22,787 bases of DNA from a virus. Positions 705 through 22,715 of this stretch are shown here, in pieces. The stretch spans positions 1 to 22,787 of the IMG/VR virus record IMGVR_UViG_3300045988_020612. The stretch is one strand, 5' to 3'. Within the stretch, counting starts at the first letter, position 1, and every line of letters starts with the position of its first letter. Below the pieces are notes generated by a model, which made no database searches, was not told where the DNA came from, and saw nothing but the letters and a program-made list of their open reading frames with translations. The position numbers and the translations under genes were made by a program.

Positions 705-1005
705 TTAGCTCACCTCTTTTCAACCTGATTGCGCCCTTAATCGGTGCGTCAATCTGTTCGATAGGGTAATACTTCTTACCCCCATAAAGAGCGTAGTCAA
801 ACGGCTTCTGCTCTTTACTGAATCGGCATATCATGACCACGTCGGACCTACTCCCATAGGCTTCAAATGCACGCTGTTGGTCAATGAAGTTAACCAAACA
901 AGGCACAATCTTGCTAGACTGTGCCTTTTCTTCGTGTTTATCAGTGATTGGGTTGTAAGTCGAAACACCTTGCTTCACTAGCTTAATGCGGTGCGGTGTT
1001 TTCAT
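697..1005 (-). CDS. Head closure / head-tail adaptor protein (SPP1 gp16-like)
   Basis: 102 aa. Lies between the connector-like and gp10-like genes and overlaps both neighbours. The call is by position and size. Confidence 0.55.
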   Translation of the reverse strand: MKTPHRIKLVKQGVSTYNPITDKHEEKAQSSKIVPCLVNFIDQQRAFEAYGSRSDVVMICRFSKEQKPFDYALYGGKKYYPIEQIDAPIKGAIRLKRGELNG

Positions 1006-7495: not shown

Positions 7496-7933
7496 TTAAT
7501 CTCCCAGAAATACAAGGCATTCGCCATTGCGGTAATTCTCCGCAAACTCCAAAATTGCCTGCTCTCTCATTCGGTAGTATTCACTTTCAGAATATCCAAG
7601 GTCCATATAGACTTCAATGTTGTACTGTTTTCTACTCCTGCAATAACACTCTATCAATATCTGACTGTAACGCCTATCTGATAATGCGTTGATAGCTCTA
7701 ACAATAGCTTGTAAGTCTTGTTCAGCGGCTACCTTGCGTGTTACCATGCTTTCGGTCTGGCTGTGAACCATTCCATCGAATGACTTGGGTTCTAACGAGA
7801 ATGAAGCTGTCACTTTAGGGGCGTATTCCAAGCCCGCTATCCGTGTTAGCATGCGATACCTTCTTAGTACCTTTATAGCTTTCTTTTTAGTTGCGGTTTT
7901 ATCTACTTCCGCAAATAGATTGATACTTGCCAT
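7496..7933 (-). CDS. arpU: ArpU-family phage late transcriptional regulator
   Basis: 145 aa. The N-terminus LFAEVDKTATKKKAIKVLRRYRMLTRIAG and the position immediately upstream of terS are typical of ArpU/RinA-type regulators (recollection). Confidence 0.7.
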   Translation of the reverse strand: MASINLFAEVDKTATKKKAIKVLRRYRMLTRIAGLEYAPKVTASFSLEPKSFDGMVHSQTESMVTRKVAAEQDLQAIVRAINALSDRRYSQILIECYCRSRKQYNIEVYMDLGYSESEYYRMREQAILEFAENYRNGECLVFLGD

Positions 7934-7957
7934 GACACCCCTCTTGTGTGATATAAT
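7927..7957 (+). promoter_or_regulatory. Candidate + strand promoter antisense to the arpU leader
   Basis: TTGCCA (7927-7932), 19-nt spacer, TGa TATAAT (TG at 7949-7950, hexamer at 7952-7957). The -35 overlaps the arpU start codon. Confidence 0.35.
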
Positions 7958-7979
7958 AGTTGTATCGTGTTCAAAGAGT

Positions 7980-8006
7980 GCCGGCCATCGTGTCGGTCTT
8001 TTTTTT
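7980..8006 (+). terminator. Intrinsic terminator oriented on the + strand
   Basis: Stem CCGGC/GTCGG (7981-7985 pairs with 7992-7996), 6-nt loop, then TC plus a T8 run ending at 8006. Confidence 0.5.
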
Positions 8007-8304
8007 GTTTATAGCTCAAGAAACGTTAAGAGATTATATTGAAAAGATTGAGTGTTTATTCTTGGGGTGTTTCTCAAGCCTTTTATCACCTCCTTTCTAG
8101 CCAAGACACCAGCAAGGTCTTTGGCTTTTGATTTGTAATGCGATATCAATAAGAAAGAGGCTTTTTCACATCCTTTTTTCTTAAATTTGCTGGGTTTGTT
8201 TTGAGCAAGGTCTGTCAGCTTGCTCGTGTCGAAAAAGTGTTAAAAAAGTGTCCAAGCCACTAAAAACCTATATCCATTTTATTTTTAGTGTTTTGACAGA
8301 CAAT

Positions 8305-8347
8305 GACTGGCAAGAGGAATCGAACCCCTTGAGTAACCATTCCAGCC
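8305..8347 (-). ncRNA. tRNA-like minihelix A (acceptor-like stem plus canonical T-arm, no D or anticodon arm)
   Basis: The minus strand reads GGCTGG-AATGGTTACTC-AAGGGG-TTCGATT-CCTCTT-G-CCAGTC. It contains GGTTCGATTCC, the tRNA T-arm consensus. Confidence 0.35.
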
Positions 8348-8369
8348 TAGATATAGAGAAATCATTATC

Positions 8370-8392
8370 GGGGATATTCCCCTTTCGTTTTT
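8370..8392 (+). terminator. Hairpin plus T-rich tail, + oriented (or a structural hairpin of a minus-strand RNA)
   Basis: GGGGA-TAT-TCCCC followed by TTTCGTTTTT. Confidence 0.3.
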
Positions 8393-8552
8393 GAAATAAT
8401 ACAAGAATTAAGTTGGATGAATTATGGAGATTTCTGACCTATATCTGCTTGCAGGCATAAGCCTTGAATAATCACGCCACCAGTAAGACGCTTTAGATTT
8501 GTGAATGAAATAAAAAAGGATTCCTCGATTCTAATTTCTTATTTACTGGTAA

Positions 8553-8594
8553 TAGCTAGCAAGGGAGTCGAACCCTCGTAAACCGTTCTAGCTA
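8553..8594 (-). ncRNA. tRNA-like minihelix B, a paralogue of element A
   Basis: The minus strand reads TAGCTAG-AACGGTTTA-CGAGGG-TTCGACT-CCCTTG-CTAGCTA. It contains GGTTCGACTCC. The 5' arm of the outer stem includes the TAG stop of the upstream CDS. Confidence 0.35.
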
Positions 8595-9299
8595 CACGCC
8601 TAATGCGTAGGCTGTATAAAGAGCTTTCCTGACCGTTGCTTTATTACGACCTACCTTGCCCTTAGTTCTATATTTAAGAATGATGCGATCAACTTCATTG
8701 TCCAATCTCTCGCTCCACTCATAGTTATTGAAGACAAAATCAATAATTTCACTGAATAATTCTCTTGAAAGTAACCCTTCCATTTGGATTGCCTTTAACG
8801 GCGTTAGTGTAGCTTTTTCCGCATAGCACAGATTGAGGGCGTTTTGGGTTCTGTTAGCATCTTTCTGGTCGCAGTCCTTAACGTCTCTAATATAGTTGTT
8901 TAAGTTATTAGGGTGTTTCTTGCGTAGTTCTTCCACTTCTTCCTGGAACCGTTTAAACAGCCCCTCTGGCAGTCCTGCGTTGGCTTTATCTAACACTGTG
9001 CGCGTGGTTTTGCCCCTTGTGTAGTGTTGTGACAGATATGCTTGTAGGTCGTTATAAAGCTCATCAGAAATGATACCTTCTAACCTCTCGACAGTTTGAG
9101 GTGAGATTCTCTGGCGTTCAACGACTGCGCTATTAAACGCCTGATATATAATGCGTGCTTGCAGTTCGTCACATTGTCTTACTTTTTGAAAGAATTGCTT
9201 ATAATCTCTCAGATGTGCCTCTTTAAGTGCTGCATGCTCACTGGCTAACCTTGAATGCAACTCTTTTGTCAGTCCGGAATATTTGTAGGTTTTGCTCAT
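8592..9299 (-). CDS. Hypothetical early protein with an internal tandem duplication
   Basis: The start was moved to the ATG at 9299 (MSKTYKYSGL...), which forms an ATGA overlap with the YopX stop. Two ~85-aa repeats are present: GLTKELHSRL...LEGIISDELYNDL and GLPEGLFKRF...MEGLLSRELFSEI. Confidence 0.65.
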   Translation of the reverse strand: MSKTYKYSGLTKELHSRLASEHAALKEAHLRDYKQFFQKVRQCDELQARIIYQAFNSAVVERQRISPQTVERLEGIISDELYNDLQAYLSQHYTRGKTTRTVLDKANAGLPEGLFKRFQEEVEELRKKHPNNLNNYIRDVKDCDQKDANRTQNALNLCYAEKATLTPLKAIQMEGLLSRELFSEIIDFVFNNYEWSERLDNEVDRIILKYRTKGKVGRNKATVRKALYTAYALGV

Positions 9300-9685
9300 G
9301 AGCTCACCTCTAATAGTTCCGGATTCTTGTATATATTTCCTGCAATTTCGCAGTCGGTATGTCGTAGCCACAATTCACATCCGTATTGCTTAGAATCAAG
9401 GCGATATGCTCCGCCTCGATGTCTTACAACTTCGTAATAAGTTGGCTCAGAATAGACATTCTTAGCCATTTTGACTACATCCCCCTCGAAGATTTCTTTG
9501 CCATTCTTGTCGGTCAGTCCAGTTGATTGCATTAAAACGATATCATCGAATTTGTAGTAATTTGTCCGTTCGAAAAAGAGTGTCTTTACAGAAATTTCGC
9601 TTTTTCCGAAATCGATAGACATAATATCATCAACTTCGTACATTGTTTTATGGATTTTATCCCACGCTCTATATCTTGGAATCAT
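9296..9685 (-). CDS. YopX-family protein
   Basis: Contains MIPRYRAWDK...LMQSTGLTDKNGKEIFEGDVV...GNIYKNPELL, the classic YopX signature. Confidence 0.85.
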   Translation of the reverse strand: MIPRYRAWDKIHKTMYEVDDIMSIDFGKSEISVKTLFFERTNYYKFDDIVLMQSTGLTDKNGKEIFEGDVVKMAKNVYSEPTYYEVVRHRGGAYRLDSKQYGCELWLRHTDCEIAGNIYKNPELLEVSS

Positions 9686-21272: not shown

Positions 21273-22715
21273 ATGGCAACACATAAAGTCGCTATCTATG
21301 TCCGAGTATCAACCACATCGCAGGTTGACGAGGGCTATTCAATTGACGAGCAGAAAGCAAAGCTAACAAGCTACTGCGAGATAAAGGACTGGAATATATA
21401 TGACATATACACAGACGGTGGTTTCTCCGGTTCTAACACGGAACGCCCCGCACTAGAGCAACTAATAAGAGATGCAAAGAGAAAGCTGTTTGATACTGTA
21501 CTGGTGTATAAGCTAGACCGATTAAGTCGCAGTCAGAAAGATACACTCTATCTGATTGAAGATGTATTTCTGGAAAATGATATAGAATTTGTCAGCCTAC
21601 TCGAAAACTTCGACACCTCAACGCCATTCGGTAAGGCAATGATTGGATTATTGAGCGTGTTTGCTCAGCTCGAAAGGGAACAAATCAAGGAACGGATGCA
21701 GCTAGGCAAATTAGGGCGGGCAAAGTCTGGCAAATCTATGCAGTGGGCAAAGACATCTTATGGCTATGATTACATCAAAGAGACTGGCACGCTCTCAGTC
21801 AATCCATATCAAGCCTTAATCGTCCGAAAGATGTTCGAATGGTATTTATCGGGTATGTCGATAACCAAGCTCAGAGACACCCTAAATGAGCAATATGGGC
21901 AAGATAAAGAATGGAACTATAGAACAGTTAGGGTTATCCTGTCGAATCCGGTATATTGTGGATATAACCAATTCAAGGGTCAGATATTCCCCGGCACCCA
22001 TGAGCCTATCATATCCGAGGAAGATTTTAACAAGACACAAGAGGAAATCAAAACAAGGCAAAGGACAGCCGCCCAGCGATTCAATCCCAGACCATTTCAA
22101 GCTAAATACATGCTTTCCGGTATTGCTCAGTGCGGCTATTGTTCAGCCCCGCTTGCTATCAAGCTAGGCATGATCCGGAAAGATGGCACACGCTTAGTTA
22201 AATACGAGTGTAAGCAGCGACACCCTCGGAAGACCAAGGGCGTGACAGTATATAACAACAATGCAAAGTGTGATTCTGGGTTCTACTTCAAAGATGATAT
22301 CGAGCACTTTGTCTTGACCGAAATCAGCAAACTGCAAACTGATTCAGACTATATCGACAAGCTATTTTCAAACACCGGCAAAGAGACAATAGACCGGGAT
22401 AGCTACCAGAAACAGATTGACAATCTGACCGCTAAAATTAGCAGACTTAATGATCTATACATTGACGATAGGATTTCACTAGAAGAATTGCAAAAGAGGT
22501 CAAGCGACTTCATGGCAGAAAGAACAGCTCTTGAAAAAGAGCTAGACGCTGACAAATCTGCTAAAACCGTAGAGCGCAAGAAAGATATTAGACGGGTGCT
22601 TGACACCAAGGATATCTTCACGCTTGATTATGAGCAGCAGAAAGCCATAGCACGCGCCTTGATAAGCAAGGTTCGAGTGACTAGTGAAACTATCGTTATT
22701 TTATGGAAATTATAG
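21273..22715 (+). CDS. int: Large serine recombinase (prophage integrase)
   Basis: 480 aa. Resolvase catalytic N-terminus VAIYVRVSTTSQ ... YKLDRLSRS. Cys-rich zinc ribbon (CGYCSAPL...YECKQRH). C-terminal coiled coil. Confidence 0.95.
   Translation: MATHKVAIYVRVSTTSQVDEGYSIDEQKAKLTSYCEIKDWNIYDIYTDGGFSGSNTERPALEQLIRDAKRKLFDTVLVYKLDRLSRSQKDTLYLIEDVFLENDIEFVSLLENFDTSTPFGKAMIGLLSVFAQLEREQIKERMQLGKLGRAKSGKSMQWAKTSYGYDYIKETGTLSVNPYQALIVRKMFEWYLSGMSITKLRDTLNEQYGQDKEWNYRTVRVILSNPVYCGYNQFKGQIFPGTHEPIISEEDFNKTQEEIKTRQRTAAQRFNPRPFQAKYMLSGIAQCGYCSAPLAIKLGMIRKDGTRLVKYECKQRHPRKTKGVTVYNNNAKCDSGFYFKDDIEHFVLTEISKLQTDSDYIDKLFSNTGKETIDRDSYQKQIDNLTAKISRLNDLYIDDRISLEELQKRSSDFMAERTALEKELDADKSAKTVERKKDIRRVLDTKDIFTLDYEQQKAIARALISKVRVTSETIVILWKL

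Follow-up and report, generated by a model that had tools for sequence, protein, structure and literature searches.

What are two short tRNA-like elements doing in the long noncoding spacer that precedes a late-gene activator in a streptococcal phage? The question arises in a 22,787-nt stretch of viral DNA (IMG/VR record IMGVR_UViG_3300045988_020612, referred to throughout as the window), which is affiliated with the S. salivarius/thermophilus phage group and represents a portion of a streptococcal prophage with genes mostly on the minus strand. A preliminary description had presented the two elements, here called B (8594-8553) and A (8347-8305), as acceptor/T-arm minihelices. Our analysis confirmed that A and B are real, strand-specific mimics of the tRNA acceptor and T arms and not tRNA genes, and they belong to a family of such 'top-half' mimics carried by phages of several host phyla.

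Read on the minus strand, to which all positions within the two elements refer, B opens with the 5′ arm UAGCUAG (8594-8588), followed by a 9-nt D-loop-like linker, AACGGUUUA (8587-8579), a 6-bp T stem (CGAGGG at 8578-8573 with CCCUUG at 8565-8560) capped by the T loop UUCGACU (8572-8566), and the 3′ arm CUAGCUA (8559-8553), which forms a 7-bp outer stem with the 5′ arm. The same plan is found in A: a 6-bp outer stem between GGCUGG (8347-8342) and CCAGUC (8310-8305), a 10-nt linker, AAUGGUUACU (8341-8332), and a 7-bp T stem (CAAGGGG at 8331-8325 with CCUCUUG at 8317-8311) around the T loop UUCGAUU (8324-8318). The letters are exactly those first reported. Both elements carry the T arm GGUUCGAYUCC, with the G53-C61 pair and the UUCRANY-type loop of tRNA, and in both the acceptor/T stack amounts to 13 bp. 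GGTTCGANTCC occurs twice in the window, where 0.02 occurrences would be expected. As had been noticed, the 5′ arm of B contains a stop codon: its first triplet is the TAG of the DUF1340 open reading frame (ORF; 8592-9371, minus strand). No ORF in the ORF list adjoins A.

The proposed structures are the minimum free energy folds of the minus-strand RNA (−16.4 and −15.7 kcal/mol), with modest z-scores (−1.97 and −1.85), and the plus strand of A does not adopt this structure. We built a covariance model, R1, from 29 family members of equal geometry taken from unrelated viral sequences, none of them from the window. R1 finds B with 41 bits (E = 2.6e-11) and A with 30.6 bits (E = 9.2e-8, match at 8304-8348); the third-best match in the window reaches 10 bits, so that B and A are the only sites found. 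Real tRNAs scarcely score with this model. Conversely, ARAGORN calls no tRNA and no tmRNA (transfer-messenger RNA) in the window, as the preliminary description had predicted, and the 9-11 nt between the 5′ arm and the T stem leave no room for D and anticodon arms. Rfam 15 returns no family at gathering score in the window, the tRNA model included; in E-value mode the matches are T-arm fragments of tmRNA models only, with E of about 1 and 8-11 bits, compared with gathering scores of 47-70.

The nearest cultured relatives of the window are the S. salivarius phages SA-TP2, YMC-2011 and Javan536. SA-TP2 has both B and A, with the 3′ arm of A changed to CCGGUC (a U-A pair becoming U-G). In YMC-2011, both helices are altered and both are still paired (UAGCCAG/CUGGCUA and GACGG/CCGUC), and the S. 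porcinus phage Javan423 has ACCAAC/GUUGGU and CGAGCG/CGCUCG. For a sample free of motif selection, we fetched 80 IMG/VR loci through the DUF1340 protein alone. At 79 of them a copy recognized by the covariance model begins at the DUF1340 stop codon, and the contig of the 80th ends at the gene. A second copy of the A type follows 210-340 nt downstream of B in roughly half of these loci. Across the 58 distinct sequences of this set, 98.2% of the cells are paired, compared with 27-53% in slid controls, and ten of the 12 pairs have changed on both sides, with frequent G-U intermediates (for instance UGAGGG/CCCUCG and CUAG/CUGG). The initial observation that differences between A and B preserve pairing therefore extends to the relatives: both stems are conserved and covary, the complementarity of the 5′ arm, whose loss would have marked a decayed host tRNA gene, is retained, and nothing points to descent by decay from a single host tRNA.

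Variants of the element also exist. In the S. thermophilus phages DT1, 5093, 9874 and P4761 (L441-L444, at about 1583-1660; L numbers are the locus labels of this analysis), a more degenerate form occupies the same place. The DUF1340 frame there crosses the 5′ arm and the linker and stops within the T stem, and the outer stem depends on G-U pairs. Phages 5093, 9874 and P4761 have in addition a second T-arm hairpin without linker about 190 nt downstream. Two other loci, L149 and L229, show at the A-type position a plain acceptor-T hairpin from which the linker is deleted (GGCUG-UCAAGGG-UUCGACU-CCUUUG-CCAGUC).

We estimated the extent of the family from two scans of IMG/VR with the pattern AAYGGT-N7-12-GTTCGAYTC, pooled with the window and three phage loci; the totals are lower bounds. 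A match passed when its T stem had at least 4 bp and its outer stem at least 5 bp. At least 265 matches were pooled, and at least 131 form both stems. The family comprises at least 128 copies from at least 104 loci, with at least 109 distinct sequences, none overlapping an ARAGORN tRNA call, and for only three of the 128 listed copies is there a tRNA gene at a distance of 500 nt or less. Among the matches listed, 27 that do not fold overlap ARAGORN tRNA calls; those of them inspected by eye are mainly class II tRNAs (Ser, Leu, Tyr), whose long variable arm fits the pattern. With shuffled flanks the pass rate is 0.5%, compared with 49.6% observed (129 of the 260 viral matches listed). A comparable scan of one genome per bacterial species gave five folding matches out of 120 listed (in Lactobacillus, Parablautia, Clostridium, Empedobacter and one further locus), which may themselves be prophages. 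Since so few matches fold in bacterial species genomes compared with viral ones, the minihelix family is strongly enriched in viral contigs. Eleven of the 12 pairs covary in an anchored gapless alignment, and both the structure and the family membership of A and B are near certain.

Cultured carriers include the Streptococcus phages Javan235, 263, 264, 221 and pSY22, the crAss-like phage cr53_1, in which the copy ends 15 nt ahead of the DNA primase start, and Mycobacterium phage Indlulamithi, with 11 copies; in these phages the copies lack annotation. The family thus spans phages of Firmicutes, Actinobacteria and Bacteroidota, the last of these being deduced from the crAss-like phage and the Empedobacter locus. 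Rfam 15 has no family that matches any minihelix copy in 12 further loci (more than 20 copies). The literature searched offers analogues only and no description of a top-half family in phages, which may be hidden among the unnamed predictions of a viral survey of 10,006 csRNAs, as far as the part of that survey consulted goes (PMC10690425).

Across the family, the outer stem has 5-8 bp, the linker 9-11 nt starting with AAYGGUU, the T stem 5-7 bp, and the T stem is separated from the 3′ arm by 0 or 1 nt. The lengths of the two stems are anticorrelated (r = −0.35, permutation p = 1e-4), and their sum peaks at 11-12 bp, as in the acceptor/T stack of tRNA; a stack of about 12 bp is the length that RNase P measures on tRNA (PMC4919913). 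The GG of the linker is invariant, even in copies found without the pattern (AGUGG, GACGG, GAUGG), and it can dock on the T loop and form an elbow. The linker, over which the preliminary description had passed, is therefore itself a conserved D-loop mimic. The linker resembles the tails of streptococcal CRISPR repeats (GAATGGTT); since phages of unrelated hosts carry the motif throughout the family, we took this likeness for a coincidence. Downstream of the 3′ arm, the first trailer position is A in 49% of the copies and the second is C in 48%; an AC[AGU]A trailer is present in 32 of 108 copies and an encoded CCA in one of 108, and the streptococcal copies have A and then UU. Among the model-aligned copies, 21 G-U pairs stand against five A-C mismatches. 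The top half thus reproduces the stack, the T loop, the elbow GG and the discriminator that tRNA top-half enzymes read, and omits the decoding half.

The copies have a preferred position relative to genes. Within 600 nt of them, 152 genes lie on the same strand and 22 on the opposite strand. The stop codon of a same-strand ORF is found at most 30 nt upstream in 62 of 120 cases, 35 of which are at most 2 nt away or overlapping, and the next ORF often starts 15-60 nt downstream of the copy. Serial arrangements are found at L092 (six copies), L114 (four), L130 (three) and L191. The clearest series is that of Indlulamithi (L440, NC_048824), where the small-gene operon gp40-gp57 has a full copy in almost all of its gaps, 11 in total between 10034 and 17375, each on the coding strand. 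Ten of them begin 4-11 nt past a stop codon and leave 34-45 nt up to the following annotated start. Behind every one of the 11 copies come a short hairpin and GAGAGGAUGG, a conserved Shine-Dalgarno stretch. The stems vary between these copies and the pairing is always kept. The start annotated for gp53 (15981) is probably placed too early; it overlaps one of the copies. A different kind of array is found at L104 (1085-1779, minus strand), with at least six near-identical minihelices separated by spacers of 100-160 nt; these are G-poor and of A/C-rich low complexity, with AACAUAAC and CUUAAC repeats, and no ORF of at least 45 amino acids lies between the copies. PHROG searches of 64 downstream and 70 upstream neighbours gave heterogeneous proteins (anti-restriction, ParB-like, primase, methyltransferase, scaffold, HNH, many unassigned), with no specific protein partner among them, and the proteins beside the L104 and Indlulamithi copies are functionally unassigned. 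This heterogeneity implies that there is no dedicated phage protein partner and points to a host factor.

In the window, B and A stand between two genes of known type. The DUF1340 gene (8592-9371, minus strand; 259 amino acids; Pfam DUF1340, E = 6e-75; phrog_1814) closes the early/replication block. Beyond it, the ORF list leaves a noncoding spacer of 658 nt (7934-8591, minus strand), which is the leader of an ArpU-type late transcription activator gene (7496-7933, minus strand; phrog_248 'transcriptional activator', E = 2e-43) and contains B, A and modular structured segments. The genes for the small and large terminase subunits lie downstream of arpU (Pfam Terminase_2 and Terminase_3 matches), and a serine integrase of the serine recombinase type is encoded at 21273-22715 on the plus strand, about 13 kb from the elements. 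The layout of the spacer, with B and downstream modules, recurs in the S. thermophilus phages DT1, 5093, 9874 and P4761. Another streptococcal phage contig with a minihelix, L132, carries at 821-907 (minus strand) a skipping-rope RNA (RF02924, 49.8 bits), together with two tRNA genes.

The leader is itself structured. A stretch beginning 2-3 nt past each copy is complementary to a partner segment 43-99 nt further downstream. After B, a domain at 8479-8550 (minus strand) is closed by a helix between ACCAGUAA (8550-8543), whose 5′ strand lies 2 nt past B, and UUACUGGU (8486-8479), and its interior contains the conserved AGAAUCGAGGAAUCCUUUU and UUCAUUCACAAAUC. After A, in a domain at 8203-8301 (minus strand), GUCUGUCA (8301-8294) is complementary to UGACAGAC (8217-8210), which forms the loop of a hairpin between GAGCAAG (8225-8219) and CUUGCUC (8209-8203). 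A perfect complement of at least 8 nt is present in 81 of 105 distinct related cases, compared with one of 105 when shuffled, and the pair GTCTGTCA/TGACAGAC is found in 52 distinct related loci. The closing helix covaries (ACCAGUCA/UGACUGGU, ACCAGUAA/UUACUGGU, UAACCGA/UCGGUUA, UAACCCGA/UCGGGUUA), and RNAalifold independently predicts the minihelix and the closing helix, compensatory changes included. In L021 and L216 the loop reads TGACTGGC / UGACUGGC in place of the partner of GUCUGUCA and is complementary to the 3′ arm of A (GCCAGUCA), a hint that the RNA may switch in structure between minihelix and downstream hairpin.

More generally, the region 8100-8552 (minus strand) is made of repeated leader modules, each closed by CCAGYMA...UKRCUGG, such as 8550-8479 or CCAGCAA (8193-8187) with UUGCUGG (8115-8109), with conserved interiors (AGAAnnGAGGAAUCCUUUU, UUCAUUCAAAUC). 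The relatives have one to three 'CCAGU...ACUGG' modules in variable order, with A present or not, and the modules at 8100-8552 have no Rfam match. Further along, CCUCUUUCU (8152-8160, minus strand) is complementary to a strong Shine-Dalgarno-like stretch, AGAAAGGAGG (8089-8098, minus strand), behind which there is no conserved ORF. This pairing interleaves with the CCAGCAA/UUGCUGG helix, giving either a pseudoknot topology or alternative folds, and may regulate arpU. A terminator scan found no sense-strand terminator in the spacer, and a promoter scan gave one weak sense-strand promoter-like site right after A, at chance frequency. On the plus strand, opposite the genes, three terminator-like hairpins with T tails are present (7980-7997, 8061-8078 and 8370-8382; 0.6 expected), which might end antisense transcripts or work bidirectionally.

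How might such elements act? The reading that we favour, with a slight lean beyond an even chance, is that A and B are top-half mimics cut by host tRNA-processing nucleases and that they punctuate the phage transcripts; for the nuclease mechanism as a whole, the case stands about evenly balanced. The elements would be transcribed within a sense-strand polycistronic RNA, in which host RNase P would cut the 5′ edge, while the cut after the discriminator would be made by RNase Z or an equivalent enzyme acting on tRNA 3′ ends; the transcript would so be severed at fixed points and a minihelix of about 43 nt set free. At B, the early-operon RNA would end at the DUF1340 stop codon and be parted from the arpU leader; the cuts at B and A together would split the 658-nt leader into structured modules, with new 5′ ends 2-3 nt before a closing helix that, speculatively, could shield them from 5′-end-dependent decay. 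In B. subtilis, RNase Z is inhibited by CCA, and its use here fits the near absence of encoded CCA and the streptococcal trailer of A and then UU. A universal host enzyme likewise fits the lack of a phage partner. The borders of the elements are gene borders: B lies on a stop codon, and family members lie 0-30 nt past stops and 15-60 nt before starts. With their T-arm motif closed by an acceptor-like stem in a non-tRNA fold, A and B resemble the t-elements of plant mitochondria. These share the GGTTCRANYCC motif and are substrates of RNase P and RNase Z, with some of the cuts falling inside reading frames (PMC1920247). The YrlA RNA of M. smegmatis is cleaved by RNase P and then receives CCA (PMC4201824). 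Of the three roles suggested in the preliminary description, mRNA punctuation is the best supported, on account of the position of the copies; 'module of a larger RNA' holds in part for the window, where a covarying long-range helix follows 2-3 nt after each copy, and a decoy function is a less probable alternative.

Several observations weigh against punctuation by cleavage. If RNase P cut B where predicted, DUF1340 would lose its stop codon and a non-stop mRNA would result, which calls for a regulatory rationale or for cutting that depends on translation. A has no adjacent ORF, and the array at L104 gives the impression that the minihelix is itself the product there. In YrlA, 7 bp favoured cleavage by RNase P (PMC4201824), and outer stems of 5-6 bp fall short of that length. 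The hairpin adjacent to the 3′ side is recurrent (L092, L114, L127, Indlulamithi, streptococcal phages) and not general. A protective hairpin after the element as a general rule was rejected, the downstream 45 nt being no more structured than the upstream control.

A serious rival, although we consider it unlikely, is that the released minihelix acts in trans as an acceptor/elbow mimic, its place in an operon merely ensuring expression; the proposed targets are acceptor-modifying toxins, RNase P or Z, the CCA-adding enzyme, EF-Tu and T-loop modifying enzymes, of the host or of a defence system. The L104 array, with no ORFs between its copies, the high copy number that a genome can reach (11 in Indlulamithi) and the conservation of the elbow and of a tRNA-like discriminator beyond the needs of a cleavage mark all favour it, and phage tRNAs are known to counter tRNA-targeting defences (PMC11555353). 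Yet tRNA-directed defence nucleases mostly cut the anticodon loop, which is absent here, the copies are not consistently associated with anti-defence genes, and the regular stop-element-start spacing in Indlulamithi, L092, L114 and L130 suits a role in cis. Since such a mimic would still require processing by RNase P and RNase Z, it overlaps with punctuation, and the two could coexist. A stronger form, which we hold to be quite improbable, is that minihelices of about 43 nt are excised, tailed with CCA and build up as phage small RNAs of a new class, which titrate or mislead a host factor, the candidates being a defence effector sensing or modifying acceptor ends, or the tRNA-processing and quality-control machinery; if true, this would be an RNA-based device for counter-defence or host take-over in phages of Firmicutes, Actinobacteria and Bacteroidota. 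More doubtful still is an uncleaved structure acting in cis, either as a block to 3′ exonucleases or as a ribosome or translation-factor site coupling termination to re-initiation. Copies that start about 10 nt or less past stops and end 15-60 nt before the next start would suit it, as would B, whose overlap with the stop codon means that terminating ribosomes must unfold it; but a plain GC hairpin would suffice against exonucleases, such a block explains neither why the T loop and the GG of the linker are invariant nor why the length is held to about 12 bp and CCA is avoided, and A and the L104 copies have no neighbouring ORFs.

The remaining readings were rejected. One is that the elements work at the level of DNA, as an inverted repeat bound by a protein, as a site for packaging or replication, or as a hotspot of recombination where modules meet; this is suggested by their location directly upstream of the packaging genes and by the B-to-A module content, which varies in the relatives as if recombined at repeated elements. 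We find this highly improbable given the 21 G-U pairs, the strong strand bias relative to genes, the asymmetry and tRNA specificity of the motif and the many unrelated genomic positions of the family. It is hardly conceivable that the elements are decayed tRNA genes or tRNA 3′ fragments left by integration (att remnants), even though nothing distinguishes their T arm from the one in a real tRNA and phages both carry tRNA genes and integrate into tRNA 3′ ends. One precise architecture is kept with compensatory changes in at least 109 distinct sequences, B persists at 79 of the 80 orthologous loci, tRNA genes are rarely close to the listed copies, and the integrase of the window is a serine recombinase encoded far away. 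An att remnant would moreover lack a matching 5′ arm, and here the 5′ arm is present and covaries, which already contradicts this reading.

If punctuation by tRNA-type processing is true, many phages of very different hosts share an RNA device of about 42 nt that borrows the tRNA-maturation enzymes of the host to cut operon transcripts. This would account for intergenic sequence that is conserved yet unannotated in dairy as well as oral streptococcal phages, in a crAss-like phage and in a mycobacteriophage, and would mark the control region of the late-gene activator in dairy streptococcal phages. Annotators would gain a new feature, and multiplexed RNA processing in bacteria would gain a natural part. 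It would also raise the question of whether excised tRNA mimics double as decoys.

Punctuation by tRNAs is textbook knowledge for mitochondria; the literature searched holds no description of it as a general bacteriophage strategy. It is familiar that host endonucleases mature phage transcripts at structured sites between genes: RNase P acts on the C4 RNA of P1/P7 and the CI RNA of P4, and RNase III on the intergenic sites of T7. However, C4 and CI are antisense regulators without T loop or elbow, and neither they nor the T7 sites have sequence or structural homology with the family. In MALAT1, with its mascRNA, and in the tRNA-like-microRNA units of gammaherpesvirus 68 (MHV68), an embedded tRNA-like element recruits RNase P or RNase Z and defines the end of a neighbouring RNA, and in MHV68 stem-loops directly follow the tRNA-like unit, as they do after B and A. 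These systems differ in being eukaryotic or viral nuclear ones with full cloverleaf-like folds, and we know of no bacterial or phage counterpart that has been described in this form. The acceptor-T-arm minihelix, the minimal substrate of RNase P, RNase Z, the CCA-adding enzyme and some aminoacyl-tRNA synthetases, likewise stacks about 12 bp coaxially beneath a T loop, and the plain hairpins without linker in L149, L229 and the S. thermophilus phages come close to it. Laboratory minihelices are, in contrast, artificial and end in 3′ RCCA, whereas the phage family has a D-loop-like linker and avoids an encoded CCA. The tRNA-like domain of tmRNA shares with the family an acceptor stem, a T arm and a stemless D-loop analogue with GG, and likewise lacks an anticodon arm. 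In tmRNA, however, the D analogue is separated from the T arm by a long helix, pseudoknots and the tag ORF, and a G3:U70 pair permits alanylation; A and B have no tag ORF and no G:U at position 3, and the family has a linker of only 9-11 nt.

The bacterial and phage Y RNA YrlA is also a noncoding RNA that mimics the T arm, the D arm and the acceptor stem of tRNA, but it includes a D stem and a helix that binds Ro60, and its gene lies beside rsr (PMC4201824). A and B have neither a D stem nor a Ro-binding helix, and their neighbours are DUF1340 and ArpU rather than rsr, which sets them apart from YrlA. The closest likeness is with the t-elements of plant mitochondria, which also combine a GGTTCRANYCC T arm with an acceptor-like stem in a non-tRNA fold at mRNA borders; RNase P cuts their 5′ side and RNase Z their 3′ side, sometimes at the cost of the mRNA stop codon, and the freed element can gain C or CA (PMC1920247). 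The t-elements belong to organelles, number only a few per genome and are for the most part degenerate cloverleaves of about 70 nt that descend from tRNA genes, whereas the phage elements, for which cleavage is a prediction, are uniformly about 42 nt long, have no D stem or anticodon arm and occur in phages of at least three host phyla. The recruitment of tRNA-processing enzymes by tRNA-like structures is thus already known; what appears to be newly described here is a uniform 42-nt mimic of the tRNA top half, placed serially within the operons of phages from several phyla.

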